This document shows positions 48 through 17,825 of a stretch of DNA of 64,000 nucleotides, piece by piece. Origin of the DNA: Verrucomicrobiota bacterium (GTDB taxonomy: Bacteria > Verrucomicrobiota > Verrucomicrobiia > Palsa-1439); NCBI GenBank assembly GCA_037127585.1, contig JBAXYB010000005.1, positions 603-64,602 of the forward strand, given 5' to 3'. The first letter of the stretch is position 1. Each line of letters begins with the position of its first letter. A model generated the notes under the pieces. The model was not told the origin of the DNA. It saw only the letters and a program-made list of their open reading frames with translations, and did not search any database. The position numbers and the translations under genes are program-made.

Positions 48-449
48 ATGACGACAATGAGCCACCGATACCGCGTCACTTTCTCATTGCTGGTTTGCGT
101 GCTCGTTGGTCGCGCGTTGCTGGCCGAGACCAACGTTCAGAAGTTCAGCTTGGAGGGTTGGTGGCGTACCGCCGGCGTCGGGGCGGGAGAGACCCTGTAT
201 TTGACGAATACGCCCACCGGCTATGCAGGCAAGGGGTACCACTGGGGGTGTATCTCCCGCCACTCGACTGACTTTTTTGTGAGTTGCACCGAGAGTAATT
301 CCATCATCACGATGAGGCGGAAGTATTGGAAGAGGTCCGATAGTCCACCGGACGGGGTGCTCACGCAGCTGTTTACCCGGGGAGTACAGGATTCAAAGCC
401 CGTCCTCATTGACCCCGAGTCAAAAGCGGTTCTATTGATAAAGCCTTGA
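48..449 (+). CDS. hypothetical exported protein (133 aa)
   Basis: ORF with a signal-like N-terminal hydrophobic stretch (FSLLVCVLVGRALLAETN). No family recognised. Confidence 0.35.
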   Translation: MTTMSHRYRVTFSLLVCVLVGRALLAETNVQKFSLEGWWRTAGVGAGETLYLTNTPTGYAGKGYHWGCISRHSTDFFVSCTESNSIITMRRKYWKRSDSPPDGVLTQLFTRGVQDSKPVLIDPESKAVLLIKP

Positions 450-528
450 CCTTGAGAACCAGCGCTAAAAATTCACTTCAGCCAACGGTCACCCGCGCTG
501 CCGCGCGGTTGCCCGTGGCTGAGTTTCA

Positions 529-825
529 GTGTTCGGCGGAGTAATCCTCATGACGAATACGCAGACTAGCGGAGCGTCGGGTAGGCAGGTCGCACAGCGG
601 CCGGGTTTGCGTCGTGTTGCCTATTGGTTGTTGCTCTCAGCGGTTGCTTTTACGGTCTACGCTCTGAGTTTGGGCCCGGTTGTGCATCATTACAGGCGGC
701 ACGAGAGTCTAGGATGGGAGGACTTGCCGCCATTGGTTCGCTTTTTGTATACGCCCCTTCATGCTGTTGGCGAGTATCTGCCGGTAGCGTATGATCATTA
801 CATTGTTTGGTGGATGAGCGATTAG
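529..825 (+). CDS. hypothetical small membrane protein (98 aa)
   Basis: ORF with one clear hydrophobic helix (VAYWLLLSAVAFTVYALSLGPVV). No family recognised. Confidence 0.3.
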   Translation: MFGGVILMTNTQTSGASGRQVAQRPGLRRVAYWLLLSAVAFTVYALSLGPVVHHYRRHESLGWEDLPPLVRFLYTPLHAVGEYLPVAYDHYIVWWMSD

Positions 826-856
826 TATCATGACCCGTTGCCGAACGGACAAGGCT

Positions 857-892
857 TAGCATCGGACGGAGCGGAGCGTAGCTCCGATGCTA
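857..892. terminator. hairpin between convergent genes (candidate bidirectional terminator)
   Basis: TAGCATCGGA (857-866) pairs with TCCGATGCTA (883-892), and an inner CGGAGC/GCTCCG pairing is possible. No clear T-tract. Confidence 0.3.
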
Positions 893-1084
893 TGCGTGGT
901 TGAACGAGCCCGCCAGGGTCGGCCACGCAGGCGGGGCGCGGGGCAAGTGTCCGACCAATGCCAGTGGTTGCCGGCAGTGTGGACAGGTGGGCACCGGCGT
1001 CGCCGCCTCGCAATGGGCGACGTGGCGAGAGGCGATTAACTGGTTCTTCTGTGAGGGCGGAAAACAACCCGTGCCGCCGGGACA

Positions 1085-2443
1085 TTACGGGGCCGGTTTA
1101 ACGAGCCGGGCTTTGGCGGCGTCGGACTGCAATTGTTTCTTCACGGCTTCCCGGGCTTGCTCGCTCATCTGTTCAAGCGGCGGCAGGCCGGCGCGCTCGG
1201 CAATTTCTTTTTCGTACCGGGTTTGCATGTACTCGCGCCAGACACTGCGGGCGAGTTGTTGGAAGCCTTGCGCTTGGTCTTCGTCGCCCATCGCCAGCCA
1301 AAACCAACTTTGTTGCAACGCGCCCATGATCATGTCGATGGCCTCGCGCTGACCGACGTCGCGGAGGAATTCGGTCATGCGCCCGAAGATGTAGGCTTCC
1401 AAACTCTGATTCAGTTCGGCAGCGGGATAGCGTTGGCGGAGGTCGTCGAAAATGTCCCGCGCTTCGGCGAGCCGGTGATGGGTGTAGAGCACCATGATGG
1501 CCGTGCGGAGGAAATTGCGGTGGCCGCTCTGCATGCCGCTCTCACCGGGGTTGGCCGCGATGGCTTGCTCGTAGGCGCGGCGGGCTTTGGGGATCAACGC
1601 CAGATTCGGCCCGGCAATGAACACGCCTTCGACTGGGTTGCTGAACAGTTCACCTTGCAGCGCCGCGTCGGCCATGGATTGGAATAGCATCCGTTCTAAC
1701 TGAATCACGTCGAAGCCGGTCGCATATCGTTTGCCGCGCCAGGCCCAGTAGATCGCGTGCGCTTGCGGCAACCGCCAGTCGAGCGGGCCGAATTCGCGTT
1801 CGACCTGTTCCATCAAGGCCGGGTCGAGCTTATACAGTTCTTTCATCCGCTGGGCCCGGTCGGGCGGGATGTTTTTGTAATCCGGGCGCGGCCCGTCGAA
1901 CAACTCCCCAATCTCGTCGGCCCACCAGCGTTTGTAGTAGACGTTCATCTGGTCGGAGTTGCCGGACATCTTGTGCTGATAGATCCAGCCGAGTTCCCGG
2001 TAGAGGCGGGCTTCGCCGGGGTTGTACTTCAACCCTTCGTCGCGCAACAAGCCGATGCCTTGCCGGACCCAGCGCCACCGGTCGGTCGGCTCGTTGAACA
2101 GGACGCTGATGTTGTAGGCCATGTTCCAACCGTGAAACGCCCAGACCTGCGCCATGCGCGGTTCGAGTTTCGTGATCCAATCCGCCAGTTGCACCAACTC
2201 AAAATATTTCCCGTCCTGCTGCAACTGCGACGACCGCAACCACAGCCAGTCCGCGATGATTCCGCGAAACCCGCCGAGTGCGACCGTCGTGAACGCGACC
2301 ATTGGCGGAGTGTTCTCCAGCGGTTCGCCGCGGGTGAGGTGAAAATCCCGGCGCGCTTGCAACAGCGGTTGCTGCATCGACCCCGCCACCCAGAAGCCGG
2401 TGACCGCGAGCAAGACAAGCACGATGGCGCCGAAGTGCTTCAT
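1085..2443 (-). CDS. N-terminally anchored helical protein of unknown function (452 aa), last gene of the SPFH/ABC operon
   Basis: ATG at 2443 overlaps the upstream stop by 4 nt (ATGA). Single N-terminal TM (AIVLVLLAVTGFWVAG) followed by a long Trp/Arg-rich helical body. No family recognised. Confidence 0.7.
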   Translation of the reverse strand: MKHFGAIVLVLLAVTGFWVAGSMQQPLLQARRDFHLTRGEPLENTPPMVAFTTVALGGFRGIIADWLWLRSSQLQQDGKYFELVQLADWITKLEPRMAQVWAFHGWNMAYNISVLFNEPTDRWRWVRQGIGLLRDEGLKYNPGEARLYRELGWIYQHKMSGNSDQMNVYYKRWWADEIGELFDGPRPDYKNIPPDRAQRMKELYKLDPALMEQVEREFGPLDWRLPQAHAIYWAWRGKRYATGFDVIQLERMLFQSMADAALQGELFSNPVEGVFIAGPNLALIPKARRAYEQAIAANPGESGMQSGHRNFLRTAIMVLYTHHRLAEARDIFDDLRQRYPAAELNQSLEAYIFGRMTEFLRDVGQREAIDMIMGALQQSWFWLAMGDEDQAQGFQQLARSVWREYMQTRYEKEIAERAGLPPLEQMSEQAREAVKKQLQSDAAKARLVKPAP

Positions 2444-3768
2444 TCCGGCAACCCGAGTTCCCGGCGATTAAAGAGCCACATCCCGAGCAACGCCACCGCG
2501 CCCCCAGCCACGATCACCTGCCACAACAAGATCGACCCCACCCAGCTCCACGCAATGAGTTCCCCACCGGCCAGCGGCTCCAACGGATTGGCCTGTTGAA
2601 ATGGTTTCGTCAGCCAAAACAAGCCCACATAAATCAAATGCAGCAAGAAATCGATCGCGCCCGGCGTGTCACCCGAGCCGAAAATATTGCGCTCGGTCGT
2701 CAGCGTCTGGAGATAGCCGCCGATGTTCATCAACATCACCGCATACGCCGCCGTGACCGCTGCGACCGGCAGCGAGAACACGCTCCCAATCGTCACCGCA
2801 AGCGCCCCGAGAAACGCCAACTGACACAATGCCACCAACAGGCACCGCACCAGATTCATCTCAAAACTCGTTTCCTGCACCAACACCTGCACGCCGTCGT
2901 CAGGCGCAAAGATCATCGTGACCGGCACGGGATGGATGTTGGCGATGTCCACTGTCAGCATCCCATTACTTTCCAACATCGCCGGCGGAATCCGCACGAG
3001 ATGCACCCCGGCGGGGGCGGTCAGCTCCGGTTTCTGAAATCGGTCGGGCCGGTCCGGCGCGCCGGCAACCAGCAGACAGCCGACCGGATCCTTGCCCGTC
3101 AACGACGAAGCAAACTTGTAGCGCACCGCCAACGGTCGCCCCGGCAGCGGCGCGTTCGGCAACTCAAACACGAACCGGCGAGCCAGTCCCGCCGGGATGG
3201 AATACGCCTGTTGCCGGAGTTGTTGGCGGATGGCTTCGAGGATTTGGTCCGGTGGGCCGGGCGGTAATTCGCCGCGGCGTTTCTGTTCGTCAAAAACTTT
3301 GCGCGCTGTTTCTTCAATCTCGACCGGCACCGGTTTCACGACGCGTTGGGCCACGAGAAACTGCGCGAGATTTTCCTGGCGCAGATCCCAGCGCAATAAG
3401 GCATACGTTGCCGCGCCGGCCAGCGCCAACAGCCCGGCATTGAGGATCAAGAGCCCGAGCCATTTCCCCAGCCAGAGTTGCGCGCGATAGACCGGCTTCG
3501 TCACGAGCAGATGGACTTGGCGTTCCTGTACCTCCGTGGAAATCGCCGCGCACCCGGCCCAGAGCGTCGCGATGGAGAGAATGAGGGTGACCGCGCCGAG
3601 CGTGTACCGCAGCAACACCTGCACGGTGCCGCCCACGGTACCGTCGCCTTTGATGGTCAGCGGGAGAGCGATGATTGCGACCAGCAACAGCCCCAGCAAC
3701 ACAACCACCACGCGCGACCGAATCGCGTTGCGAATGGCAATGCCGGCAATGGCGAGAACTTTACTCAT
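2440..3768 (-). CDS. ABC-2 type (NosY/YhaP-like) transporter permease with a large extracytoplasmic insert (442 aa)
   Basis: N-terminal TM, then the motif EVQERQVHLLVTKPVYRAQLWLGKWLG typical of ABC-2 permeases. Multiple C-terminal TMs. Start lies 3 nt after the ATPase stop. Confidence 0.75.
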   Translation of the reverse strand: MSKVLAIAGIAIRNAIRSRVVVVLLGLLLVAIIALPLTIKGDGTVGGTVQVLLRYTLGAVTLILSIATLWAGCAAISTEVQERQVHLLVTKPVYRAQLWLGKWLGLLILNAGLLALAGAATYALLRWDLRQENLAQFLVAQRVVKPVPVEIEETARKVFDEQKRRGELPPGPPDQILEAIRQQLRQQAYSIPAGLARRFVFELPNAPLPGRPLAVRYKFASSLTGKDPVGCLLVAGAPDRPDRFQKPELTAPAGVHLVRIPPAMLESNGMLTVDIANIHPVPVTMIFAPDDGVQVLVQETSFEMNLVRCLLVALCQLAFLGALAVTIGSVFSLPVAAVTAAYAVMLMNIGGYLQTLTTERNIFGSGDTPGAIDFLLHLIYVGLFWLTKPFQQANPLEPLAGGELIAWSWVGSILLWQVIVAGGAVALLGMWLFNRRELGLPE

Positions 3769-3771
3769 CGA

Positions 3772-4794
3772 CTACTTCGACGGCTCGACGAGCTTGCGCA
3801 ACTTTTCGTCCGCCGCCTGTTTCTGCTCGGCGGTGAGCGGTACCGGCGCCGCGGGTTGAGCGACCAAGTGTTGCAGCGCTTCATCCCCGGCCAGATATTT
3901 GGCAACACCCGATGCCGGCCCGACCCCGCTGGCTTCGGTGGTGGATTGCCGAGCTTTCTCGACGACTTCGAGGAAAAACTGTTCCAGATCGCGCCGCGGA
4001 TGATCCACGGTAGGTTCGTTGCCGAGTTCGGCGCGGACCGCGGCCAGAATACGCTCCATGCCGGCGGCGGAAACTTCCGGCATCGTCAGCCGGTACTGCG
4101 TCTTTTGCTCCAGCAATTCGTTGATCGTGCCGAGCGCCTGCACTTTGCCATTATAGAGAATGATGACCCGGTCGCACACGTCCTCGACATCCGACAACAG
4201 GTGGGACGACAGCAAGACCGTCTTGCCGCGAGCCGCCAGCGCCCGGATCAAATCCTTCACCTGCCGGCAACCGATCGGATCAAGGCCGGAGGTTGGTTCA
4301 TCGAGAATGACGAGATCAGGATCGTTGATGAGCGCCTGCGCCAACCCAATCCGCCGCGCCATGCCCTTGGAGAATTCGCCGACTTGCCGGCGGCGCGCGT
4401 GGCGGAGGCCGATCATGTCGAGCAACTGCTCGGTGCGCACCCGGCGTTCACCCGCTGGCAAATCAAACAGCATCCCGTAAAACGTCAGCGTCTCCTGAGA
4501 AGTGAGGTAGGGGTAGCTATACGATTCCTCCGGCAAGTAGCCGATCCGCGCCTTCGTCTTCACATCGCGCGGCGACCGGCCCAGAACGCGCACTTGGCCG
4601 CTGGTCGGATAAAGCAGCCCGAGAATCATCTTTAGCGTCGTGCTCTTGCCGGACCCGTTCGGTCCGAGCAAGCCGAAGACTTCGCCGCGCTTGACCGTGA
4701 ATGAAACGTCGTTGACGGCTTTAACTTTGGGCCGCCGCCAGAAATCGCGGAAGACTTTCTGCAGTCCGACGACTTCGATGATTGGCTCACTCAT
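3772..4794 (-). CDS. ABC transporter ATP-binding protein (340 aa, with C-terminal extension)
   Basis: Walker A GPNGSGKST, signature-like FSKGMARR, Walker B LVILDEPTSGLD. Start overlaps the stop of the P-type ATPase gene by 8 nt. Confidence 0.9.
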   Translation of the reverse strand: MSEPIIEVVGLQKVFRDFWRRPKVKAVNDVSFTVKRGEVFGLLGPNGSGKSTTLKMILGLLYPTSGQVRVLGRSPRDVKTKARIGYLPEESYSYPYLTSQETLTFYGMLFDLPAGERRVRTEQLLDMIGLRHARRRQVGEFSKGMARRIGLAQALINDPDLVILDEPTSGLDPIGCRQVKDLIRALAARGKTVLLSSHLLSDVEDVCDRVIILYNGKVQALGTINELLEQKTQYRLTMPEVSAAGMERILAAVRAELGNEPTVDHPRRDLEQFFLEVVEKARQSTTEASGVGPASGVAKYLAGDEALQHLVAQPAAPVPLTAEQKQAADEKLRKLVEPSK

Positions 4795-6670
4795 GGAGGT
4801 CTTCGCCGGTCCGAATCAAGCGCGCGCTGTTGAACACCACGATCAGCGAACCAACATTATGCAGAATGGCCGCGACGATCGGATTCAATTGCCCAAGCCC
4901 GGCCAGCGTCAGGCCGAGGACAATAAACAGGGCGCCGACGCTGAGGTTTTGGTAAATCACCGAGCGGGCGCCGCGCGAAAGACGCACGAGAAACGGCAGC
5001 CGGCGCAGATCATTGCTCATCAGGGCGATTGTCGCGCTGTGAATCGCAACATCGCTGCCGGCCGCGCCCATCGCAATGCCGGTATCACCCGCGGCCAAGG
5101 CCGGCGCATCGTTCACGCCGTCGCCGACGACTGCGACTTGATAGCCGTCAATTTTCACGGCGTTGACGAATTCGACTTTTTGTTGTGGCAGGCATTCGGC
5201 TTTGAATTCCGGGCAGCCGATTTCTTTCGCGACACGCGTTGCAACCGAAGTGCGGTCGCCGGTCACCATCGCAATGCGTTTGATGCCGAGTTCGCCTAAG
5301 TCTTTCAGCGCAGCTGCGGCCTCCGGGCGGACTTGATCTTGCAAGCCGACCCAGCCGAGATACCGGCCGTTCTGCGCGACAAAAATGACACTCGAACCTT
5401 CGGAGTCGACATCGTCCACCGTGACACCGTTGGCTTTTAGCCATGAGGCGCGACCGGAAACAACTTGGCCGCCGGTTACGTTTGCAATGACGCCTTGACC
5501 GGGTTCTTCACGGAAATTCTGCGGTTCAGTCAAAGGCACGTTGGCTTCTTTGGCCAGAGCGACGAGCGCGATTGCGGCCGGATGTTTGCTAAAGCGCTCG
5601 GCGCTGCCGGCGGCGAAAAGTAAGTCGCTAGGCTTCACGCCATCGCACGGCGCAAGCCGGGTGACGCCAAGCTGGCCGGTTGTAAGCGTACCGGTCTTGT
5701 CGAAGACGAATGCGGTCAACCGCGCCGCGCCTTCGAGGTCGGTCACATCTTTGACAAGAATGCCGAGCCGGGCGGCCGCTGACAACGCGGCGACCATCGC
5801 GCTGGGCGTCGCGAGGATGAGCGCGCACGGGCAGGCGGTCACGAGCAGGGCGATGACGCGATTCCAGTCGTTCGTGAAAAACCACACCAGTCCGGCAATC
5901 ATCAACACCGCCGGTGTGTAGTAGGTAATATACCGGTCGATGATCCGCATGATCGGCAACCGGGTTTTCTCGGCGGCCAGAATGAGTTCTCGAACGCGGC
6001 CGATGGTTGTGTCGGCGCCGACGCGCATCACGGTAACTTCAATCGCGCCGGTCAGATTCTGGGTACCCGCGAAGACGTCGTCCGCTGGGCCTTTGTCGCG
6101 CGGGAGCGATTCGCCGGTAATCGTGGATTCGTTCAGCGTCGTGCGGCCGGTAAGAATCTTGCCATCGGCGGGAACGTTGTCGCCCGGGACGACACGGATG
6201 CGATCGCCGGTATGCAGTTGATCCGCCGCGACGGTTTCCTCACCGCCTTTGGCGAGCAACCGGCAGGCGTTCGTCGGGGTGAGCCGGATGAGGCCTTCGA
6301 TGGCGGCGTGTGCGCCTTCGGCGGTGCGGGTTTCGATGACGACGGAAATCAGCATGAAGAACGCAACCACGCCGGCAGTGCGGAAGTCGCCTTGGACAAA
6401 CGCGGCCAGCACGGCGAGCGCGACGAGTTCGTTCATGCGCAGTTCGCCGCGGCGGATGTCGCGCCACGCGGTCTGCAGAATCGGCGACATCAAGATGATC
6501 GCACCGATGGCGGCGCTGACTTCACCGACGGGCGCGTTGAACCGGTAGAGCCAGTCGGCGAGATACGCATTCACCACGAACGCGGTGCCGATGCAAATCC
6601 ACAGGAACAGCCGCGGCGCGACTTCGTGGTCGCAACAGGCGCCGTCGTGAACGTGGCTTTTGGTTTGCAT
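4787..6670 (-). CDS. heavy-metal translocating P1B-type ATPase (about 627 aa)
   Basis: DKTGTLT phosphorylation site, GDGVNDAPAL hinge and TM6 CPC motif (TACPCALILATP). I place the start at ATG 6670 (MQTKSHVHDGACCDHE), 2 nt after the upstream stop, rather than at 6805. Confidence 0.9.
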   Translation of the reverse strand: MQTKSHVHDGACCDHEVAPRLFLWICIGTAFVVNAYLADWLYRFNAPVGEVSAAIGAIILMSPILQTAWRDIRRGELRMNELVALAVLAAFVQGDFRTAGVVAFFMLISVVIETRTAEGAHAAIEGLIRLTPTNACRLLAKGGEETVAADQLHTGDRIRVVPGDNVPADGKILTGRTTLNESTITGESLPRDKGPADDVFAGTQNLTGAIEVTVMRVGADTTIGRVRELILAAEKTRLPIMRIIDRYITYYTPAVLMIAGLVWFFTNDWNRVIALLVTACPCALILATPSAMVAALSAAARLGILVKDVTDLEGAARLTAFVFDKTGTLTTGQLGVTRLAPCDGVKPSDLLFAAGSAERFSKHPAAIALVALAKEANVPLTEPQNFREEPGQGVIANVTGGQVVSGRASWLKANGVTVDDVDSEGSSVIFVAQNGRYLGWVGLQDQVRPEAAAALKDLGELGIKRIAMVTGDRTSVATRVAKEIGCPEFKAECLPQQKVEFVNAVKIDGYQVAVVGDGVNDAPALAAGDTGIAMGAAGSDVAIHSATIALMSNDLRRLPFLVRLSRGARSVIYQNLSVGALFIVLGLTLAGLGQLNPIVAAILHNVGSLIVVFNSARLIRTGEDLHE

Positions 6671-6672
6671 GG

Positions 6673-7701
6673 TTACTGGTGCGGAACAATCGGCTGCGGT
6701 TCGGGGTTGAGTAAGAGACGGAGTTCTTGCCGGTCTTTGCCGTTTTTGTGGAGCAGGAATTTCTGGTCGACCCCGGCCAGCGCGCGGCGCAGTGAATCTT
6801 GCCACAGCGTTCGCGCCATGATGTCGGGGTTCTTTTGGTATTGCGCGTACACGGCCGTGAAATAATCCGCGCTGGCGCCGACTTCAGCGACGACTTGGCG
6901 TTTGTAGGTTTCGCCTTCGGACTTGATGCGAGCGGCTTCGCCGGCGGCTTCGTTGCGGGTGGTGGTGGCTATTTTGCGGGCGGCGCTGATCTTCGTGCTG
7001 CGTTCCTGTTCGGATTCCGTGACGGCGGCGAAGGCGGCGGCAACTTGTTTCGGGGGCGCAATCGCCAACACATCCACGCGTTCGATTCGGACGCCGAATG
7101 TTTCGGTGCGCTGGCGAACTTCGGATTCAACGGCAGCGCGCAAGGCTTCGACATCGGTGCGCAACGCGCGATCGACCGGCAGCCGCGCAGTGCACTTGAC
7201 GACGGCATGATCCAGCTCGCGTTGGAGCAAGGCTTCCGGTTGGTTGAATCGGAAGCTGTACGTCTCGAGATCCACCACGGTAAACCGCACGGCCCACCGG
7301 GAATGAATGATGTTCGCGTCGCCGGTCAGCGTGTAACCATCCACACCGGGGCGGAGGGCGCCGGGGCCGGGATTCTCCGGCGTCACTTTCTCCTCGCGCA
7401 ACCAGAACGTCGCGGAATTAATCGCCTGAACGCGTTCGGTCGGAATCCGCACGACTTCGGCGACCGGCCGCGGCCACGTCCAATGCAAGCCCGGGCCTTT
7501 GAGCCGGTCGGCAGCGAGGCCATCAATCTTACCGAACACGAGCACGTAAGCGCGTTCGTGTTGGCCAACGATGAACACGCCGGAAAATAAATACGCGACA
7601 ACGACCAAGCTCATCGCCCAGCGCAAGAGCCGGAAGCTCACCGTCAGCGCGCCGCTCAGCGCCTCGTGGCCGGTATCGGGAGTTGTTGGATGATTGGCCA
7701 T
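6673..7701 (-). CDS. SPFH/band-7 domain protein, HflK-like (342 aa)
   Basis: N-terminal TM followed by an SPFH core (VFIVGQHERAYVLVFGK...GLHWTWPRPV) and a coiled-coil Ala/Glu-rich C-terminus. Start overlaps the upstream stop by 1 nt. Confidence 0.85.
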   Translation of the reverse strand: MANHPTTPDTGHEALSGALTVSFRLLRWAMSLVVVAYLFSGVFIVGQHERAYVLVFGKIDGLAADRLKGPGLHWTWPRPVAEVVRIPTERVQAINSATFWLREEKVTPENPGPGALRPGVDGYTLTGDANIIHSRWAVRFTVVDLETYSFRFNQPEALLQRELDHAVVKCTARLPVDRALRTDVEALRAAVESEVRQRTETFGVRIERVDVLAIAPPKQVAAAFAAVTESEQERSTKISAARKIATTTRNEAAGEAARIKSEGETYKRQVVAEVGASADYFTAVYAQYQKNPDIMARTLWQDSLRRALAGVDQKFLLHKNGKDRQELRLLLNPEPQPIVPHQ

Positions 7702-8594
7702 TATTTCTTGGGCAATGCTTTGTCGCCTTGCAGTAAATCAAACGGCTCGGTCTCGGTGCTCAGTACAACCGTCGATTTCTTTTTCAACGTCAGCTCCAGC
7801 ACTTCGAGTTTGCGCAGGAACATCGCCAGCTCGGGGTTCTTCTCGAAAACCTGATACGACTCCGCCGCTTTCGCGTCGCCCTCGGCGCGGATGCGTTTGC
7901 TGGCGGCTTCGGCGGACGCGAGCAGTTGGCTGCGTTGGCTGTCGGCTTCCGCGCGAATCTTGATCGCTTCGCCTTCACCTTCCGACCGGTAGCGCTCGGC
8001 GATCTCGTCGCGTTCGGCGCGCATCCGGGCAAACACTTTTTCCGTGATCGACTCCGGCAACCCAATCTTGCGGATGCCGACGAATTGCACTTCGATGCCG
8101 TACCGGGAGAGGGCTTCGGGTTGAACGGCGGTCAACATCTGCTGCTCGATCTCGGTAAACTTCACCGCCTGTGGATCGGTGTTAATCAAACTGGAGAAGG
8201 GGAACTGGCCGAGCACGGCGTTCTTCTGGCTCCGCAACAGTCCGTCAAGATTGCGCTCGGCTTGTTCGACGGTGCCGATACGTTCCAGGAATTTGATCGG
8301 GGACTGAATGCGCCAGCCGGCATAAACGGCGGCGAGCAGATTCTTGCCGTCGCGCGTGAGCGTTTCTTCGAACGCACCGTCGAGGGTGTGGATCCGGTTG
8401 TCGAACCGGTAGACGCGCTGCACCGGCCACGGCCAGCGGGTATAGAGGCCGGCAGCGCTGATGGCGCGTTCGGGTTTACCGAACGTGGTGACGACGACCG
8501 CCTCGCCTTCGCGCACCGTGAACAACACTTGCAGCAACACAAACAGCGCGGCCACGAGCAAGCCGACTGTCAGTAGTAATCCGTTTCGTTTCAT
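7701..8594 (-). CDS. SPFH/band-7 domain protein, HflC-like (297 aa)
   Basis: TM, then FTVREGEAVVVTTFGKP, and RMRAERDEIAERYRSEGEGEAIKIRAEAD typical of HflC. Confidence 0.85.
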   Translation of the reverse strand: MKRNGLLLTVGLLVAALFVLLQVLFTVREGEAVVVTTFGKPERAISAAGLYTRWPWPVQRVYRFDNRIHTLDGAFEETLTRDGKNLLAAVYAGWRIQSPIKFLERIGTVEQAERNLDGLLRSQKNAVLGQFPFSSLINTDPQAVKFTEIEQQMLTAVQPEALSRYGIEVQFVGIRKIGLPESITEKVFARMRAERDEIAERYRSEGEGEAIKIRAEADSQRSQLLASAEAASKRIRAEGDAKAAESYQVFEKNPELAMFLRKLEVLELTLKKKSTVVLSTETEPFDLLQGDKALPKK

Positions 8595-8597
8595 TCG

Positions 8598-10424
8598 TTA
8601 CTCCTTCTTCTTCGCTGGCTGCGGGCCGAGGTCGAACAACTCCGGTCGCAGCTTGTCTTCGAAATTCAATTGCAGGACTTCGCTTCCCAGCCCGGCCGGG
8701 ACGATGAACTTGCGCGCGCCTTCCAACGAATTGGCCAGCGCCGTCAGATACAGATTCGCGCGGAACACGTGCGGCGATTTCTTTTGCGTCTCGACTTGCG
8801 TCAGAAACCGGTCGGCTTCGGCCGCGGAAATCTCCGTCCGCTGCGCCCGGTATGCCTGCGCGTCGTACGTGGCTTTCGCGCCATCCGCTTCGGCCAACGT
8901 CACCGTCTTGCCGGCGGTGGCGCGGGCGAGCAGGATGCTGGCTTCTTTCAATTCGAGCGCGCCAATCACGGACTGGAAAGCTTCCGCCACTTGCGTCGGC
9001 GGATGGACGCCTTGCAAGCCGACGAAGACGATCTGGATGCCGAGTTGCCGGTGATCAGCTTCGGCTTGAATGCGCTGCCACAGTGAATTGGCGACGCGAG
9101 TCTGGCCTTCGCCCATCAAATCGAAGAGGTCGCGCGTGGCCGCTTCCTGCGTCAAAATCCGGTGCGCGATCTGGTCGAGTAGCCGCGCCGAGTCGGCGTA
9201 GTGGTAGGCGAACGCATAGATATTGGTGATCTGGTATTCGACCGGCACGTTGAACGCCACGAGATTGACCGGTACCGCGCCCTCACCGAGGCGCGGGGCG
9301 GCGACGAGGAATTGTTCTTCGCCCTGGGCATGCGGGACGTTCCATTGAATGACTGGCGGCTCTTGCCCGCCGGCTTGCGTCTGGCCGATGCGGAGGCTGA
9401 GAATGCGTTTGACGGGGAACCGGCGGATTGTCGCGAACGGCCACGGCATTTTCAGATGGAAACCGCTATCGAGTTCCGCCACCGGTTTGCCGAAATGTTC
9501 GAGGATGGCCTTTTCGTCCGGCGCGAGAAAGACAAGGCACGAGAGCAGGTAGAGCGCGATGAGTTGGAAAATGATCAGCGGCAACAGCGCGTCTTCGAGA
9601 AACCGGTACAGCCATGAATCGGACACTTTGAAACCAAACTGATAGTCGAGCGAGCCGGCCACATTCCTCGCCCACGAGCCAGGTTCGGTGATCAGTCCGC
9701 CGAGCCGGCTTTCGTACGACCGGCACAGCTCGTCGCCTTTGCGCCGCGGCCGGTAAAGGTTCGCGATGAAATTAACGACAAGCTCAACCGCCAAGACGCC
9801 AAGAACCGCCAAGAGAAGTTTAGCGGCGATCGCATCGGCGCGCGGGTAAGCCAGTTCGCTAACGAGCGTCGCGATACCGGCGAGCACGGAAGCAAAGCAG
9901 GTCACGCCGAGCGCGATGCCGGGGCCGCGGAGCAACCGGGCTTGCCGACTGTAACCAAGTAGATACCGGCTCAGGAGAAAGGTTGTGAACGCTTGGCCGC
10001 CCAGAAATGCCAGCGCGAGGAGGCGTTGGCCGGCAGGGCCGGTCAACTCCCGGTACAGCACCAGAATCCAATAGCCAATGCCGCCGGCCAGTAACAACGC
10101 AATGACCGGGACGACGAAACGTTCGAGCGCGGTTTGCGTCGAGCGGAAGGAATAGGGTTCGGCGCCGGCCGCCTCGTCGAAGATCGAACCGCTGACGCGT
10201 TCGCGGGCGGCGCTGGCGGCCGCCTGTTTTTCTTCAGCGGCGCGGCGGATGAGGCGTTCGCGAATGTAGACGACGAGCGAAATTACCAGCGCGATGGCGA
10301 GGAAGGGCAGGAGGGCGGCAAGCACCCGCAGTTGTGTGACTCGCGACAAGGCGAAGTTCACAATCAACCAAACCGCGGCGAGCAACCCGGCCAACAGCGC
10401 GGTACGTTCGGTCCGTTTATCCAT
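8598..10424 (-). CDS. polytopic membrane domain fused to a C-terminal SPFH (HflK-like) domain (608 aa)
   Basis: About 7 hydrophobic helices in the first 300 aa, then an SPFH core (AILEHFGKPVAELDSGFHLKMPWPF) and a coiled-coil tail. Start shares 1 nt with the upstream stop (TGATG). Confidence 0.8.
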   Translation of the reverse strand: MDKRTERTALLAGLLAAVWLIVNFALSRVTQLRVLAALLPFLAIALVISLVVYIRERLIRRAAEEKQAAASAARERVSGSIFDEAAGAEPYSFRSTQTALERFVVPVIALLLAGGIGYWILVLYRELTGPAGQRLLALAFLGGQAFTTFLLSRYLLGYSRQARLLRGPGIALGVTCFASVLAGIATLVSELAYPRADAIAAKLLLAVLGVLAVELVVNFIANLYRPRRKGDELCRSYESRLGGLITEPGSWARNVAGSLDYQFGFKVSDSWLYRFLEDALLPLIIFQLIALYLLSCLVFLAPDEKAILEHFGKPVAELDSGFHLKMPWPFATIRRFPVKRILSLRIGQTQAGGQEPPVIQWNVPHAQGEEQFLVAAPRLGEGAVPVNLVAFNVPVEYQITNIYAFAYHYADSARLLDQIAHRILTQEAATRDLFDLMGEGQTRVANSLWQRIQAEADHRQLGIQIVFVGLQGVHPPTQVAEAFQSVIGALELKEASILLARATAGKTVTLAEADGAKATYDAQAYRAQRTEISAAEADRFLTQVETQKKSPHVFRANLYLTALANSLEGARKFIVPAGLGSEVLQLNFEDKLRPELFDLGPQPAKKKE

Positions 10425-11419
10425 CAGGCTTTAGTTTCGACGTTACGGAATGAGAGCATGCCCAAACTTAGGACGCCAAGCAAATAAAAGATACTGTAGC
10501 CCGCGACTTGCCGGACATACACCCACGGGATCTTCCCGTTAACTCCCATTAGACCATCGGCTACCCAAAAGTGTTGCCAGTTCGGCAATACATAATAAGC
10601 GATGGCCGCCAGCGGATTAGTCCCGGCAATTCGTCCCAGCAGATAATCGCTCATCAATCCGGCCAGCAACACCACCGTACACACCGCCAATGTCGGCACC
10701 AGTTCCAGCCGCGTGATCAACGCCAGCGCCACGCCGGCCAACACCAGTGTCGCCAAGGAAACAAGAATACTCGCCGGCAATATCGGCCACGGCACGCCAC
10801 CGCGCGCCACGGTGTACGCAAACACCACGATTAGCAGGCCGACCAGCAACCCGAACGCCGTCGAGACAAACGGTCGTTGCTGATAATAATTGAGGATGCC
10901 GGCCACGATGTACGCCAGAAACAGCGCGCCCACGACTGGGCCGATGTTATCCCAGGCCGCGCCGTAGGTGTCGTTGGCCATCCGCGCGCTCAAGAGGGTC
11001 GCGATCCCGGTGGCGACGGAGAACAATCCCAGCACCCCGACCACGCCGGTAAATTTGGCGACAAAGAATAGCTCGCGGTTGACCGGCTTGCTCAACACCG
11101 TCGCCAGCGTGCCGCGTCGGAGTTCGCGCCCCAACGCCGCGCTCGCCGCATACCCGCCGAGCAACAGCCCGCCGATGAAATGGCTCGCCAGCGCGCTGTC
11201 CTGCACAAGTTTTTCCGATTCACCCATCGTGTGCATCAACAACACCGGCAGCAGCGCGATGAACAGCACGCACGTGGTGGTCAACAACAGCAGAATGGGC
11301 TGACGCAATGCCTCCAGCAGCGTCAGTCCAGCAATCGCCAAGAATCGTTTCAGAAGCGGTCTCACGTTTCGCGGGCGACTATATACATTGTCTCCGCCAG
11401 CGATGCAACTCGTCGGCAA
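10424..11419 (-). CDS. ABC-2 type transporter permease-like membrane protein (first gene of operon)
   Basis: Contains RGTLATVLSKPVNRELFFVAKFTG (same TKPV.R motif as the 2440-3768 product) and 6 or more TMs. The start is uncertain: TTG at 11419, or in-frame GTG at 11366. Confidence 0.65.
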   Translation of the reverse strand: MPTSCIAGGDNVYSRPRNVRPLLKRFLAIAGLTLLEALRQPILLLLTTTCVLFIALLPVLLMHTMGESEKLVQDSALASHFIGGLLLGGYAASAALGRELRRGTLATVLSKPVNRELFFVAKFTGVVGVLGLFSVATGIATLLSARMANDTYGAAWDNIGPVVGALFLAYIVAGILNYYQQRPFVSTAFGLLVGLLIVVFAYTVARGGVPWPILPASILVSLATLVLAGVALALITRLELVPTLAVCTVVLLAGLMSDYLLGRIAGTNPLAAIAYYVLPNWQHFWVADGLMGVNGKIPWVYVRQVAGYSIFYLLGVLSLGMLSFRNVETKA

Positions 11420-11539
11420 TCCGGCAAGAGCGCGGAATTTGGTAAGACAGTTTCCGGCTGGTTGAAGATTTTTGCTGCAATTACCGAGGTAACGCTGTAA
11501 AGAATTTCACAGTCTATTAACCAACGAGGAGATCCGACC

Positions 11540-11818
11540 ATGGCCGCAAAAGCTAAAGCCGCAAAACGTAAACCCAGTGCCGCATTCATGAAACCCGTCC
11601 AACCCAACGCGAAACTCGCTTTGGTTGTCGGCAACAAACCGCTCCCCCGCACCGAGCTCACCAAGAAGCTGTGGGTGTACATCAAGAAGAATGGTTTGCA
11701 GGACAAGAAAGTCCGCACCCAGATCAATGCAGACGCCGCGCTCACTGCAGTGTTCGGCGGTAAGAAAAAGGTTAGCATGTTCGAGATGACCAAGCTGGTC
11801 TCGCAGAACGTGAAGTAA
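11540..11818 (+). CDS. SWIB/MDM2 domain protein (92 aa)
   Basis: Basic Ala/Lys-rich N-terminus followed by PLPRTELTKKLWVYIKKNGLQDKK...INADAALTAVFGGKKKVSMFEMTKLVSQNV, the canonical SWIB fold signature. Confidence 0.85.
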   Translation: MAAKAKAAKRKPSAAFMKPVQPNAKLALVVGNKPLPRTELTKKLWVYIKKNGLQDKKVRTQINADAALTAVFGGKKKVSMFEMTKLVSQNVK

Positions 11819-11841
11819 GACTGGGATTCAATCGTAGTCGA

Positions 11842-11875
11842 AAAGGCAACCTCGCCCTGAGGTTGCCTTTTCATT
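11842..11875 (+). terminator. rho-independent terminator after the SWIB gene
   Basis: AAAGGCAACCTC / GAGGTTGCCTTT stem with a short loop, followed by TTCATTT. Confidence 0.7.
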
Positions 11876-12053
11876 TGGTGCGCGTAGGAGACGTTCGGCT
11901 GGGTCTACCCCCTACGGTGATTGCATTTGAGGGTGAGCGGGGAAACGTTTGTAAGTAAGCCGGGCGTAGGTACTTATTTTTCTTCCGGTTGGGTGGCGAT
12001 TTTGGTTCAACATGGGGATGCAAAGCAAATCATCCGCCTTGTCGCGGTGCGAG

Positions 12054-13295
12054 CAAAACAGGACAAGTTCCGGAGTTAGCAAAACAGGACACAACACCGG
12101 TAGCCACAGTTATCCCTCCACCGCCCGCCTTCATTCGTCACATTCTCGACTCGTTTCGACAACGCACGCTGACTGACGTCGAGTCCGCCGCCCAACTCGG
12201 TTTGTCCCGCCGTCGGCTCTACGCACTGGTCACGGCTTACCTGCACGCCCGCACGCACCAGCGCCTGGCGGGTCGGGCGGCAACCATACGCCGCCCTGGC
12301 CACAACCCGTCGTGGACTTACTGACCAAGCGGCTGCGGTGTGTGCCGCCGTGTCCATACAGTTTCGCGGCGTCCGAGGTCTTCCGGCTGCAGCACTTCAA
12401 GCTCGACCGATCCCAAGTCCGCCGCTGGGCCCTCGCGCACCAACTGGCGCACGCGGGCCCCGTGCCGCGCGTGCTGGCCCCGGTGCGCCGCTGGCAGCGC
12501 GCCGGATCGGCGAACTCTGGCAAATCGATGCCTCACCGCATCGCTGGTTTGCCCACGCGCCAAACCCCTTTCCGATGCTGAACATGCTGGATGATTGCAG
12601 CCGGGTCTTCACAGGCTCCCAACTTTACGAACGCGAACTCCTCCTCGCCTACTTCGCCTTCCTCCCGCCGGCTTTTCGGGCCCACGGCCGACCCTTGCAA
12701 CTCTGTGTTGATTACCACAGCCTCTTTTTCACCCACGATTCCGCCGCCCTGACGCAATTGGGTTGGAGCTCAAGTTCTACGACATCAGCTAGCGCTACGC
12801 CCCCACACCCCAAGCCAAAGGTATAGTCGAACGCGAACATCAGTACTGGCAAGGCCGACTCCCGGCCGACTTCGCGAGCGAAAAGATCACCGATTTGGCT
12901 GTCGCCAACACCCACCTCGACGCGCTTCGTGCGCACCACAATGCCCACGAAATCCATCGGGAACTCCGGCAGACCCCGCAGCAAGCGTGGCGGCAGGCCG
13001 CCAAAGAAAATCGCTCCGTGCTGCGGCCGGTGCCGCAGTGTCCGTGGTGGGACTACGTGTGGAGCGTCCGCACGACCCTCAAGATCGGCGTCGATGGGCG
13101 CGTCCCCATCGGGACGCAACGGCTCCGGATCGAACAACCCGCTGGCAGCAAAGTTTTTTTATGTCTCCACCCCACCGGCCATCACTCCGTGCTGGCCGCG
13201 CCACCCGAAGTCGGCACCAAACCCAAACTACTGTTTACCAACCGTCCCAAATAAAAAGTGTCCTGTTTTGCTAACTCCAAACTATTCCTGTTTTG
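12054..13295 (+). mobile_element. decayed IS element (rve/DDE integrase-core type, IS481- or ISNCY-like), about 1.24 kb
   Basis: Terminal inverted repeats lie at 12054-12092 and 13258-13295. The inner 20 nt (GAGTTAGCAAAACAGGACAC, 12073-12092) are a perfect reverse complement of 13258-13277. Each end carries two copies of CAAAACAGGA. No target-site duplication is evident. Confidence 0.75.
12093..13254 (+). pseudogene. transposase pseudogene (HTH plus DDE integrase core), multiply frameshifted
   Basis: The sensible reading hops frames near 12260, 12505 and 12760 and hits an in-frame TAG at 12790-12792. Recognisable pieces are LTDVESAAQLGLSRRRLY (HTH), GELWQIDASPHRWF (D1), LCVDYHSLF (D2) and KGIVEREHQYWQ (E). 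Confidence 0.75.
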
Positions 13296-13541
13296 AAAAC
13301 TACACGACAACCCCTTCGATTCATCTTGGCCGTAGTACTTAGTTCCGTTATCAGGTCACCGACTCAGCACAGTTTCACAACATCTGACAAAGATTTTACA
13401 AAACTCTTACCGTATTCTGACCATGCCTTCCGTAAAATGGTGTCTGATGAAGTTGAAAGGAAATAGACTATTATGAAACTCACAACTCAGCTCATTACTG
13501 CCCGCGCCCCGTTTGATTTTCGGATTACACGCATTCTCCTC

Positions 13542-15096: not shown

Positions 15097-15159
15097 AACT
15101 TCCCCTTCATCCTGACTTCGGCGTTGCTCATCGGGCTTTGACTCGCTATCTTGCCGGGC

Positions 15160-16596
15160 ATGGAAGGCAACGATCAGATTCAGGCGCGGCTCGAGAAACG
15201 CGCGAAGCTTTTGGAAAAGGGGATTGATCCGTACGGTGGCCGGTATGAGATCAACGAAACCATCGCCGTCGCGCGCGCGACGCCAACGCCGGAACGCGAC
15301 GTGCGGCTGGCCGGACGGTTGATGAGCCATCGCGACATGGGGAAGAGCATGTTCGCCGACCTCAAGGACTCGAGCGGGCGTATCCAACTTTACATCCAGA
15401 AAAAAGTGCTCAGCGACGAGCAGTTCGAGATGTTCAAGCACTTCGTCGATCTTGGCGACATCATTGGGGTGACCGGGAAGTTGTTCGTGACCCATGCCGG
15501 GGAGTTGACGGTGCGCGTGGAGACTTGGACGATTCTCAGCAAAGCCATCCAGCCGTTGCCGAAGGAGCATTTCGGCCTCAAGGACACCGAAACGCGGCTC
15601 CGGCAGCGCTACCTCGATTTGTGGTTGAACGAGAAGTCGCGCGAGACATTTCTGTTGCGCAGCAAGATCGTGTCGGAGATTCGGAAGTTTCTCGATGGGC
15701 GCGGGTTTGTCGAAGTCGAGACACCGATGATGCAGCCGCTGGCCGGCGGCGCGGCGGCGGAGCCGTTTAAGACGCACCACAACGCGCTCGACCTCGATCT
15801 GTTTCTGCGCGTCGCACCGGAGCTTTACCTGAAGCGCCTGCTCGTTGGTGGCTTCGAGAAAGTATACGAGATCAATCGCAATTTCCGCAACGAAGGCATT
15901 TCGCGCCGGCATAATCCCGAGTTCACGATGCTCGAAGTCTACCAAGCCTACGGCGATTTTGAGACGATGATGGACCTCGTGCAGGGCATGATCGTGACGA
16001 TTGCGGAGAACATCTTCGACGAGTTGACCGTGAAGCGGTACGACGGCACGGAGATCGATCTCGCGCCGCCGTGGCGCCGCATCACGTACCGGGAGATTGT
16101 CGAGGAACGCATCGGCAAAGACTGGTTCACGCTTACGCCCGCCGAACGCAAACAGCTCGCGACCCAGATGGGTGTGGACTTCCCGCCCGACGCGCCCGAC
16201 TACGAAGTCACCAACGCCATCTTCGAAAAGACGATCGAGCCGACGTTGATCAATCCGACCTTTGTCACACACTTGCCGGCGGAGTTGGTCGTGCTCGCGA
16301 AGCCAAACAAACAGGATGCCGGCATCGTGGACGTCTTTGAACTCATCATCAACGGCCAGGAGATCGCGCCGGCGTATTCGGAGTTGAACGACCCGGTCGT
16401 CCAGCGCGCCCGACTCCTCGCTCAAGCCGCCGGTCACGCTGAACATCTCGACGAAGATTTCCTCACCGCCCTCGAACACGGCATGCCGCCTGCCGGCGGG
16501 ATGGGCATGGGCATCGACCGGCTCGTGATGATGTTGACCGGCGCGGAGAGTATCCGGGACGTGATCCTGTTCCCATTATTGCGCCCGCAATCATGA
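15160..16596 (+). CDS. lysS: lysine--tRNA ligase, class II
   Basis: OB-fold N-terminus and class II motifs ([18 protein letters not shown]; [16 protein letters not shown]). Start is ATG 15160, or TTG 15151 as in the ORF track. Confidence 0.95.
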
Positions 16597-17825
16597 CGCG
16601 CTTGCCGTTTGAACTCTTTCTCGGACTCCGGTATCTCAAACCGAAACGCTCGTTTGTTTCTGCGATCACGTTGATCTCGTTGCTCGGTGTGACCCTCGGC
16701 GTCTGGGTGCTCATCGTTGTCATCGCCGTGATGAGCGGGTTCGACCGGGAACTCCGCGACAAACTCATGAGCATGCACGCGCATGTGACCGTGACCGGCG
16801 GCCTGATTCAGAATGGTGACGAAATCCTCGATGTCGTTTTGCACACCCCGCGCGTGAAAGCCGTCGCGCCGTTCGCCATGGGCTTGGTGCTTGTCGAGTT
16901 TCAGAAGCACGTCGCCACCCCGTACCTGAAAGGCATCGACCCGGTTCGCGAGGTCAAAGTCAGCCGGTTGGCCTCCTACATCAAGGAAGGTAAACTCGAT
17001 GTGGCCGGCGAGAAGGTTGTCATCGGTCAGGAGCTCGCGCAGCAGTACGGCATTTTCCTCGGCGACAAAATCACCGTCTACTCACCACGCAACATCGAGA
17101 AAAAGGGCGAGGAAGTTTACCTGCCGATGGAACTCACCGTGACCGGCATCTTCTCGTCGGGCATGTACGAGTACGACATCGGTCTCATCTTCACCTCGTT
17201 GGAAACCGCGCAAGAACTCTACAACCTCAACGGCGCGATTCATGGCGTCGAAGCCATCACCGACGATCCATTCATGGGTTCGCACGAGGTTGCCGCGGCG
17301 CTCCGGCAGAGCTTGCCGGCACCATTGCGGGCCCAGACATGGATGGACATGAACGAAAAACTGCTCGGCGCGATTCAAGTCGAGAAGACTGCGATGTTCC
17401 TCATTCTCAGCCTCGTCATCGTCGTCGCGGCATTCTGTGTCATGGGCACGCTCATTACCGTTGCGGCCCAAAAGACCAATGAGATCGGCGTGTTGAAAGC
17501 GATGGGCGCGACGCCGTTTCGCATCGCTCGATTATTTCTCTTTCAAGGTTTCATCGTCGGCCTCATCGGTGTCGCAATGGGGCTCGTTCTTGGCCTGCTG
17601 ACGATTGACCACATCGAACAAATCCGGCGCTTCCTCGCCGACGTGCTTCATCTCGATCTGTTCCCGCGTGAAATTTACAACCTCACGAAGATTCCGACGT
17701 ACCTGACCACGCGCGATCTCGTGACCATTGCGGTGTCCGCACAAATTATCGCCACATTGGGAGGCCTGTTGCCGGCGTTGTGGGCGGCCTTTTTGGAACC
17801 AGTGGAGGCGCTCCGACATGAGTGA
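16593..17825 (+). CDS. lolC: LolC/LolE family lipoprotein-releasing ABC permease (FtsX-like)
   Basis: N-terminus PFELFLGLRYLKPKRSFVSAITLISLLGVTLGV, a large periplasmic loop and the C-terminal FtsX 3-TM module. ATGA overlap with lysS. Confidence 0.85.
   Translation: MTRLPFELFLGLRYLKPKRSFVSAITLISLLGVTLGVWVLIVVIAVMSGFDRELRDKLMSMHAHVTVTGGLIQNGDEILDVVLHTPRVKAVAPFAMGLVLVEFQKHVATPYLKGIDPVREVKVSRLASYIKEGKLDVAGEKVVIGQELAQQYGIFLGDKITVYSPRNIEKKGEEVYLPMELTVTGIFSSGMYEYDIGLIFTSLETAQELYNLNGAIHGVEAITDDPFMGSHEVAAALRQSLPAPLRAQTWMDMNEKLLGAIQVEKTAMFLILSLVIVVAAFCVMGTLITVAAQKTNEIGVLKAMGATPFRIARLFLFQGFIVGLIGVAMGLVLGLLTIDHIEQIRRFLADVLHLDLFPREIYNLTKIPTYLTTRDLVTIAVSAQIIATLGGLLPALWAAFLEPVEALRHE

Follow-up and report, generated by a model that had tools for sequence, protein, structure and literature searches.

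Fixed genetic linkage of an HflK/HflC-type SPFH trio to a P1B-type ATPase and an ABC-2-type permease in Verrucomicrobiota, Kiritimatiellia and Lentisphaerae

The 64-kb stretch of contig JBAXYB010000005.1 from a Verrucomicrobiota bacterium that we analysed (hereafter the window) carries on its minus strand, between positions 1085 and 11419, eight open reading frames (ORFs), which we designated G1 to G8 in the order of their transcription. They encode two ABC-2-type permeases, three SPFH proteins of the HflK/HflC type, a P1B-type heavy-metal ATPase, an ABC ATPase and a membrane-anchored helical protein (Table 1). An earlier note made from the sequence alone (the original prediction) had described these genes as a tightly packed block, and re-reading of the sequence confirmed all eight ORFs and every junction. 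G1 and G2 overlap by 1 nt (TGATG), as do G3 and G4 (TAATG); G7 and G8 overlap by 4 nt (ATGA) and G5 and G6 by 8 nt, and gaps of 3, 2 and 3 nt separate G2 from G3, G4 from G5 (with ATG 6670 as the G5 start) and G6 from G7, respectively. The proposed gene identities (permease, SPFH trio, P1B ATPase, ABC ATPase) also agree with Pfam and NCBIfam, and the product of 1085-2443 (G8) belongs to no family. As for the start sites, the longest ORF of G5 opens at GTG 6805; orthologues begin with MQT.SH, in agreement with ATG 6670, which we take from these N-termini to be the start, as noted earlier. The N-termini of the G1 orthologues suggest another correction, as G1 probably starts at GTG 11365 (313 aa) rather than at the previously noted TTG 11419 of the longest ORF.

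Table 1. Position and predicted products of the operon genes and of the region upstream (window coordinates)
Feature	Position	Strand	Description
G1	10424..11365	-	Permease-like membrane protein of the ABC-2 type, 313 aa (start GTG 11365)
G2	8598..10424	-	608-aa fusion: six-helix N-domain, linker, seventh transmembrane helix, HflK-like SPFH domain, long coiled-coil helix
G3	7701..8594	-	HflC-like SPFH protein, 297 aa, one N-terminal transmembrane helix
G4	6673..7701	-	HflK-like SPFH protein, 342 aa, one transmembrane helix after 27-aa N-terminal tail
G5	4787..6670	-	P1B-type heavy-metal ATPase, 627 aa, His/Cys-rich N-terminal tail
G6	3772..4794	-	ABC transporter ATP-binding protein, 340 aa, DrrA/NodI/GldA-like
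G7	2440..3768	-	ABC-2-type permease, 442 aa, paralogue of G1 with inserted domain
G8	1085..2443	-	452 aa, N-terminal membrane anchor and all-helical TPR-like solenoid
Upstream intergenic region	11366..11539		Common to the operon and the divergent SWIB-domain gene; presumed operon promoter region
SWIB/MDM2-domain protein	11540-11818	+	92 aa, Pfam E 8.4e-24, divergent from the operon

The eight genes form one operon. Internal promoters or terminators, which according to the original prediction might split the block, showed no excess over shuffled sequence (3 observed sigma-70-like promoter sites versus 2.9, and 14 intrinsic-terminator-like sites versus 14.5), in a scan whose sigma-70-like and intrinsic-terminator-like patterns may not fit this phylum. 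The promoter role of the intergenic region upstream of G1 is assigned by position alone, because the same scan saw no sigma-70-like site there. An 85-aa ORF (828-1085, minus strand), opening at the TAATG that closes G8, is Arg/Pro/Gly-rich and has no family match; it is probably not a ninth gene.

Relatives of the operon were found by scanning for G2 motifs, with one genome taken per species. Relatives of the 7TM-SPFH protein G2 turned up in at least 573 species-level genomes, of which the 80 best were examined. Almost all of the 80 are labelled as Verrucomicrobiota (Chthoniobacterales, Limisphaerales/Pedosphaera, Verrucomicrobiales), Kiritimatiellia or Lentisphaerae; note that the taxon labels of several records of metagenome-assembled genomes (MAGs) are plainly unreliable (e.g., 'Bifidobacterium', 'Klebsiella'). 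The closest named relative of the window is a Verrucomicrobiae MAG. Synteny was surveyed by searching 85 loci with the eight proteins (tblastn), and the 63 loci possessing a complete ATPase, all among the 80 retrieved, were regarded as informative. The order G1-G2-G3-G4-G5 on one strand was present in 63/63 of them, comprising Verrucomicrobiota, Kiritimatiellia and Lentisphaerae, and G1 heads this core, being located upstream of G2 wherever the locus has room. The arrangement is far beyond chance, because the same order recurs in dozens of species with a G2 identity of only 32-68%. The HflK/HflC-type trio is therefore in fixed genetic linkage with an ABC-2-type permease (G1) and a P1B-type ATPase (G5). 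The median identities across the surveyed loci are 41% for G1, 36% for G2, 48% for G3, 36% for G4, 61% for G5, 64% for G6, 32% for G7 and 43% for G8; we regard G5, with its 61%, as the most conserved gene of the block. Estimated intergenic medians within the G1-G5 core are 4, 21, 81 and 110 nt, G1-G2 (4 nt) being the tightest junction.

The genes G6-G7-G8 follow the core directly in 32 of the 53 loci that offer at least 4.5 kb of room, and in three more they are partial or split. The system thus consists of two modules, G1-G5 and G6-G8, adjacent in about 60% of loci. The full eight-gene order occurs again in L087, in L092 (which has a distant G2 relative) and in L009, a Lentisphaerales MAG, so that the block, expected in the original prediction to be one unit with synteny kept outside this genome, has been recovered in both Verrucomicrobiota and Lentisphaerales. 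In the Kiritimatiellae contig L014, G1-G7 are present as far as the contig end. G8 always stands after G7. Further loci show the modules apart or altered: L086 has G6-G7-G8 without the core, in L003 these genes lie a few genes apart from the core, and in L043 (a Verrucomicrobiia MAG, 6086-9333) G7 and G8 come immediately after the ATPase, a G6-like ABC ATPase not having been detected in the interval. A reduced variant (L090, 2031-5829) consists of a gene for a 390-aa ABC-2-like permease followed by one for a distant, 871-aa 7TM-SPFH relative. No further conserved neighbour (regulator, chaperone, outer-membrane factor) was found when 451 flanking ORFs were clustered, as no family occurred in more than 5 loci.

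The SPFH (Pfam Band_7) domain was detected in all three members of the trio (G3, E 3.3e-29; G4, E 7.8e-24; G2, residues 302-503). G3 scores 166 bits on the HflC model TIGR01932, above the equivalog cut-off of 134.4, and its closest solved relative is E. coli HflC (7vhp_G, E 2.7e-32). G4 is closest to E. coli HflK (7vhp_E, E 4.1e-17); its score on the HflK model TIGR01933 (130.3 bits), like that of G2 (108.9 bits), is below the equivalog cut-off of 159.4. Identity to G4 is 27% for the SPFH part of G2 and 22% for G3, and since the three proteins share only 22-27% identity with one another, the duplications are old. Judged from hydrophobic segments and from the placement of positive charges, the latter read by eye, G3 and G4 would fit an N-in/C-out orientation with a periplasmic SPFH domain; the pattern of G2 would fit seven helices with the N-terminus inside.

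G2 is the most unusual of the three. Its AlphaFold2 (AF2) model (pLDDT 78) consists of helices 4-30, 33-76, 93-125, 134-158, 163-191, 196-224 and 271-294, followed by the SPFH domain and then by a 73-residue helix (477-549), so that the label '7TM' given to this protein in the original prediction is supported, with six long helices and a seventh one ahead of the SPFH domain. Between the six-helix domain and the seventh transmembrane (TM) helix lies a linker, predicted to be cytoplasmic, in which DYQFGF is invariant; the model places two short helices in this most conserved stretch (invariant D260-Y-Q-F-G264). Structure comparison of the model with Foldseek gave HflK as the best match (7vhq_E, E 4.5e-14), and stomatin, prohibitin, erlin and QmcA were also matched. 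A profile of the N-terminal domain has no match among PDB sequences or in Pfam. By exhaustive phmmer, however, the domain is present in 764 clusters at 50% identity, nearly always at the N-terminus of proteins of 600-790 aa, and the fusion is therefore the rule. The six-helix membrane domain and the 7TM-SPFH fusion family that it defines are novel and uncharacterised.

G5 carries the Pfam domains E1-E2_ATPase and Hydrolase and scores well above the cut-offs of the NCBIfam models TIGR01525 for heavy-metal P-type ATPases (512.7 versus 346.25 bits) and TIGR01512 (446.6 versus 313.5 bits). Its catalytic motifs, as read from the translation, are intact (DKTGT, TGES, HP, GDGVNDAP), and it has no Pfam match to an HMA domain. 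Most orthologues possess a His/Asp/Cys-rich N-terminal tail of the type HDHDH...CxxCGHDHEH (HVHDGACCDHE in the window). TM4 of the window protein contains CPC and TM6 HNVGS. In an alignment of 66 sequences (the window protein and 65 orthologues), C280 and P281 are conserved in 66/66 and C282 in 63/66; the TM6 motif H-(N/V)-x-G-S is likewise well kept (H604 in 62/66, G607 in 63/66, S608 in 58/66), position 605 being Asn in 39/66, as in the window (N605), and Val in 22/66. The protein is about equally distant from ZntA (4umv, E 3.3e-93), CopA and the P1B-4 pump sCoaT (7qbz, E 2.6e-86).

We compared G5 with the P1B subclasses, using criteria taken from later papers that cite the P1B classification of Smith et al. 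2014. A P1B-2 identity (ZntA-type, Zn/Cd/Pb) was rejected because K693 of 4umv aligns to a hydrophobic residue and D714 to Asn. P1B-1 (CopA-type, Cu+) was rejected as well: F-I stands at the YN position, MxxSS is lacking (by comparison with 3rfu), there is no HMA, and the score on TIGR01511 (385.7 bits) is below the cut-off of 397. CtpC of Mycobacterium tuberculosis has been labelled 'P1B-6-like' for its CPC together with His-Asn in TM6 (PMC9374683), and G5 has both features. The TM5-TM6 spacing quoted for P1B-6 is N-x18-H-N-x-(S/T) (PMC13460109); G5 does not belong to P1B-6 in this strict sense, having no Asn 19 residues ahead of H604 (column 585 is Gly/Leu) and a Ser at +4 rather than at +3. 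No Pfam match to DUF1490 or DUF6110, i.e., no PacL-type partner, was found in the operon. Because P1B-1, P1B-2 and strict P1B-6 each failed on defining residues, we assign G5, on its residue pattern, to an unclassified P1B subgroup with an unusual transmembrane site. Its substrate is probably a divalent transition metal, with Zn2+ as the leading guess and Co, Cd and Mn as further candidates. In two loci of Verrucomicrobiota (L003, 5574-7820; L008, 4943-6847), the gene of another P1B ATPase is located ~2 kb upstream of the cluster; its product is CopA-like, has YHS/HMBD domains and is 31-33% identical to G5.

G1 and G7 match Pfam ABC2_membrane_2 with 30.4 and 29.7 bits, respectively, both just above the cut-off of 27.2. 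The orthologues of G1 are matched by ABC2_membrane_4 or ABC2_membrane_2 in 11-12 of 13 cases, and those of G7 by ABC2_membrane_2 in 14 of 15. Their profiles gave no meaningful match to PDB sequences. The two proteins are homologous end to end (hhalign probability 96.8%, E 3e-10), and G7 differs from G1 by an insertion of ~140-170 aa, predicted to be extracytoplasmic. G6 is an ABC ATPase (ABC_tran, E 4e-34) with drrA, GldA, lantibiotic-protection ABC ATPase and NodI as its best NCBIfam matches, all below the equivalog cut-offs. The parts by which an ABC-2 transporter is recognised, an ABC_tran protein and ABC-2 permeases, are thus present in G6 with G1 and G7. In view of the paralogy of G1 and G7, we read them most simply as a single ABC-2 transporter in which G1·G7, probably a heterodimer, is the permease and G6 the ATPase. 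The original prediction, which spoke of 'two different primary transporters', has to be adjusted in this respect, as the two permeases are paralogues and probably belong to one and the same ABC-2 transporter. PADLOC returned generic ABC/AAA matches for G6 and nothing for the other seven proteins, and an anti-phage defence system was rejected as an identity of the locus.

G8 has no Pfam or NCBIfam family. Its homologues are numerous and all named 'hypothetical', with PF13428 in 2 of the 120 homologues listed. The AF2 model (pLDDT 84.4) shows a putative membrane helix (2-33) followed by ~20 helices arranged in an all-helical solenoid, for which Foldseek found only generic TPR superhelices (OGT, SPY; TM-score 0.2-0.3).

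The operon encodes what we regard as a self-contained machine of the inner membrane, typical of Verrucomicrobiota, Kiritimatiellia and Lentisphaerae. We propose that it is an SPFH-scaffolded platform for metal efflux or delivery that holds the pump and the ABC-2 transporter, a reading to which we give an even chance. G2, G3 and G4 would assemble as HflK and HflC do, into a hetero-oligomeric ring or cage at the periplasmic face, in which the HflC-like G3 may alternate with the HflK-like G2 and G4. G5 would pump a divalent transition metal (most likely a Zn2+-like one) out of the cytoplasm. G1, G7 and two copies of G6 may form one heterodimeric ABC-2 transporter partnered by G8, and this ABC-2/TPR module could clear the metal further or hand it to envelope clients. 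The six-helix bundle of G2 and its invariant linker might contact G1 and/or G5, and the ring would corral both primary transporters within one membrane patch and stabilise or gate them.

Several observations weigh against this proposal. The G6-G8 module is not adjacent to the core in about 40% of loci, and the reduced variant L090 has neither HflC/HflK paralogues nor an ATPase or ABC module within its 14.7-kb contig. The transmembrane motifs of G5 match no characterised P1B subclass exactly, and the His/Cys N-terminal tail is missing in several orthologues from Kiritimatiellia and Lentisphaerae. FtsH could still be recruited in trans. Finally, no metal-responsive regulator is found nearby, and the genomic context is a housekeeping one (a SWIB protein, an aminoacyl-tRNA synthetase, a MacB/FtsX-type permease and a Ser/Thr kinase in the window); homeostasis or metal delivery therefore fits at least as well as resistance.

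A bolder version of the platform proposal, which we regard as possible though rather doubtful, is that bacteria of the Planctomycetes-Verrucomicrobia-Chlamydiae (PVC) group possess a second, three-paralogue cage of the HflK/C type whose clients are a P1B pump and an ABC-2 transporter, not a protease. Such a cage may bound a membrane patch, possibly a closed periplasmic chamber into which metal would be pumped and from which it would be passed on. If true, an HflK/C-like assembly would here, for the first time, be seen hard-wired to natural clients other than a protease.

The relation to FtsH needs particular attention, as the original prediction had used the absence of a protease gene as an argument for a dedicated role of the trio. 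Indeed, a six-frame regular-expression search for Walker A plus HExGH, which could miss divergent proteases, found no FtsH-like ORF in the 64-kb window or, for the 85 loci, within 10 kb of the cluster. However, the lack of ftsH at the locus is uninformative on its own, because in proteobacteria the canonical hflK-hflC operons do not lie beside ftsH either (PMC13086221). In L041, the contig of the cluster also encodes, 9 kb upstream, the C-terminal part of a second, canonical HflC (134-616, plus strand). This fragment shows ~30% identity to G3, and over 135 residues it matches E. coli HflC with 80 bits. Records of Verrucomicrobia, Chthoniobacterales and Planctomycetota give the name HflC to its relatives, two of which stand in ordinary two-gene hflK-hflC pairs, the HflK of which score 275-283 bits on the HflK model. 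This evidence, one same-contig case plus indirect evidence rather than a census, suggests that the trio is probably a diverged paralogue set and not the ordinary HflK/HflC pair of the cell. A trio distinct from the canonical HflK/HflC of its relatives favours a dedicated role. The L041 record is labelled 'uncultured Bifidobacterium sp.', clearly a wrong taxon, and next to the HflC fragment it contains a block (908-7993) that, to judge by eye from the translations, resembles a MoxR-type AAA ATPase / DUF58 / BatA-like operon.

On these grounds it seems unlikely, though it deserves serious consideration, that the trio is a variant HflK/C that acts with a distant FtsH and controls the turnover of the pump and the ABC-2 transporter. 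The affinity of the proteins speaks for such a role, since G3 exceeds the HflC equivalog cut-off, all three have E. coli HflK or HflC as their closest solved structures, and a distant ftsH would be nothing unusual for hflKC genes. The scores of G2 and G4, below the HflK cut-off and far from those of the canonical HflK proteins of relatives, point in the other direction, as does the L041 contig, which carries a canonical HflC in addition to the cluster; furthermore, linkage to the ATPase and G1 in every informative locus is not a property of canonical hflKC.

Another possibility, which we judge quite unlikely, is that the SPFH proteins chiefly serve an ABC-2 transporter exporting an envelope component or a small molecule, the P1B ATPase being secondary. 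The G1-G2 junction is the tightest of the core, and this pair is the only one retained in L090, so the primary client of the 7TM-SPFH protein may be the ABC-2 permease; moreover, G6 resembles ATPases such as DrrA, GldA, NodI and those of lantibiotic protection, the G6-G8 module also stands alone, and the G8 family is large. It is difficult to reconcile a secondary role of the ATPase with its presence in 63/63 informative loci and its high conservation (median 61%), and no biosynthetic or envelope genes are conserved in the flanks.

We also considered that the six-helix domain of G2 is a transporter like those of the cation diffusion facilitator (CDF) type, making the locus a three-transporter metal system; this appears highly improbable. 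Behind the SPFH matches, Foldseek returned ZnT1 (8xma, E 6e-3, target TM-score 0.47) and YiiP (8f6h, target TM-score 0.48-0.57) for the G2 model, and the invariant residues R153 and E214 lie inside model membrane helices (134-158 and 196-224). These CDF matches (E 6e-3 to 3e-2) are nevertheless weak, may concern any part of the model, and could reflect generic six-helix packing; sequence similarity of the domain to a PDB chain or Pfam family is absent even by profile. Also against a CDF-like transporter, the invariant residues of G2 do not evidently include the Asp/His metal-site motifs that characterise CDF helices 2 and 5. Fortuitous adjacency of the genes, with no shared function, is effectively refuted by an order kept in 63/63 loci of three PVC lineages at 32-68% identity, next to flanking genes that are not conserved.

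Upstream of the operon, a 170-aa minus-strand ORF (11362-11874) that overlaps the SWIB gene has no family match and is probably spurious. Beyond the SWIB gene, ~700 bp upstream of the operon start, lies an element of 1,207 bp (12072-13278) with perfect 21-nt terminal inverted repeats (GGAGTTAGCAAAACAGGACAC), for which zero matches are expected by chance. With only fragmentary ORFs, none of which has a Pfam match, it resembles an insertion sequence that has decayed or is non-autonomous. Each of its ends is flanked by another, imperfect copy of the repeat motif (12039-12069 and 13280-13310). Further upstream, the window has the gene of a class II aminoacyl-tRNA synthetase (tRNA-synt_2) and, behind it, that of a MacB_PCD/FtsX permease (15151-17825, plus strand). 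The same pair occurs in the Kiritimatiellae MAG L001 (1123-4672), where the stretch also includes an ABC ATPase gene. The presence of this pair near the cluster in both cases hints at a wider ancestral synteny.

Rings or cages of SPFH proteins have recently been solved for HflK/C, prohibitin, stomatin, flotillin and erlin, and their effect on the enclosed proteins is debated. To our knowledge, FtsH is the only well-defined bacterial client of HflK/C. In the locus described here, genetic linkage singles out a pump and an ABC-2 transporter as the putative clients of a diverged HflK/C trio. The question of what an SPFH ring does to a transporter thereby becomes directly testable, and the locus may reveal roles of such rings other than the control of the FtsH protease. 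It also defines an uncharacterised 7TM-SPFH fusion family and, with G5, a subgroup of P1B pumps whose transmembrane site is unusual, and points to a route of metal handling in Verrucomicrobiota, Kiritimatiellia and Lentisphaerae, where metal handling has been little studied. The original prediction knew of no description of such an arrangement, nor did we find one in the searchable literature: no paper linking SPFH/HflK with P-type or P1B ATPases, ABC transporters or PVC phyla was found, and a 2009 survey of prokaryotic SPFH operons makes no mention of P1B or ABC-2 partners. What would be new is an SPFH scaffold with a hard-wired set of transporter clients, including the new 7TM-SPFH family.

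Among known systems, NosDFY and other ABC-2 or mechanotransducing ABC systems assemble metal centres by means of an ABC2_membrane_2-type permease, a DrrA-like ATPase and a partner in the periplasm, and both transporter components have their counterparts here; no relative of NosD, NosL or NosY was detected. As to the pump, many P1B-4 ATPases related to sCoaT (7qbz) have no HMA domain either, and H-x-x-G-S in TM6 of G5 parallels their TM6 motif H-E-G-x-T. G5 differs from them in having CPC instead of SPC in TM4 and Asn or Val instead of the Glu in TM6, and from the P1B-2 pump ZntA (4umv) in lacking the Lys/Asp pair. Scaffolds of the stomatin/flotillin type (e.g., stomatin-aquaporin-1, 9zd2) are similar in that an SPFH oligomer holds or regulates a membrane transport protein, and PaFlo5-7 of Pseudomonas are encoded in an operon with several SPFH paralogues (PMC13086221). 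In contrast to the present trio, which is predicted to face the periplasm, these assemblies face the cytoplasm and are not genetically tied to their clients, and no P-type ATPase or ABC-2 partner is reported for them in the literature searched.

Two systems come closest. The E. coli HflK/HflC-FtsH complex (7vhp, 7wi3, 9cz2) shares with G2, G3 and G4 the SPFH domain followed by a long coiled-coil helix, the order of an HflK-like gene before an HflC-like one, and a membrane anchor near the N-terminus; most of each chain of the trio is predicted to lie in the periplasm. The differences are that here three paralogues are present rather than two, one of them with a novel six-helix membrane domain, that G2 and G4 fall below the HflK cut-off, and that the genes are fixed beside those for a P1B ATPase and an ABC-2 permease. 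The second system is the PacL1-CtpC 'effluxosome' of M. tuberculosis, the P1B pump of which likewise has CPC in TM4 and His-Asn in TM6. Its scaffold PacL, a small cytoplasm-facing DUF1490 protein, is co-encoded with CtpC and stabilises the pump in membrane platforms independently of flotillin (PMC9374683, PMC13460109). Metal-binding stretches of the His-Asp type are common to both systems. Here, by contrast, three SPFH proteins predicted to face the periplasm and an ABC-2 transporter accompany the pump, and the N-x18-H-N-x-(S/T) spacing is unmatched. By analogy, the effluxosome may nonetheless be seen as a precedent for a dedicated scaffold of a CPC/HN P1B pump, and it appears to be the closest relative in function. 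The system of the window is thus built most like HflK/C and would work most like PacL-CtpC, being a full member of neither.

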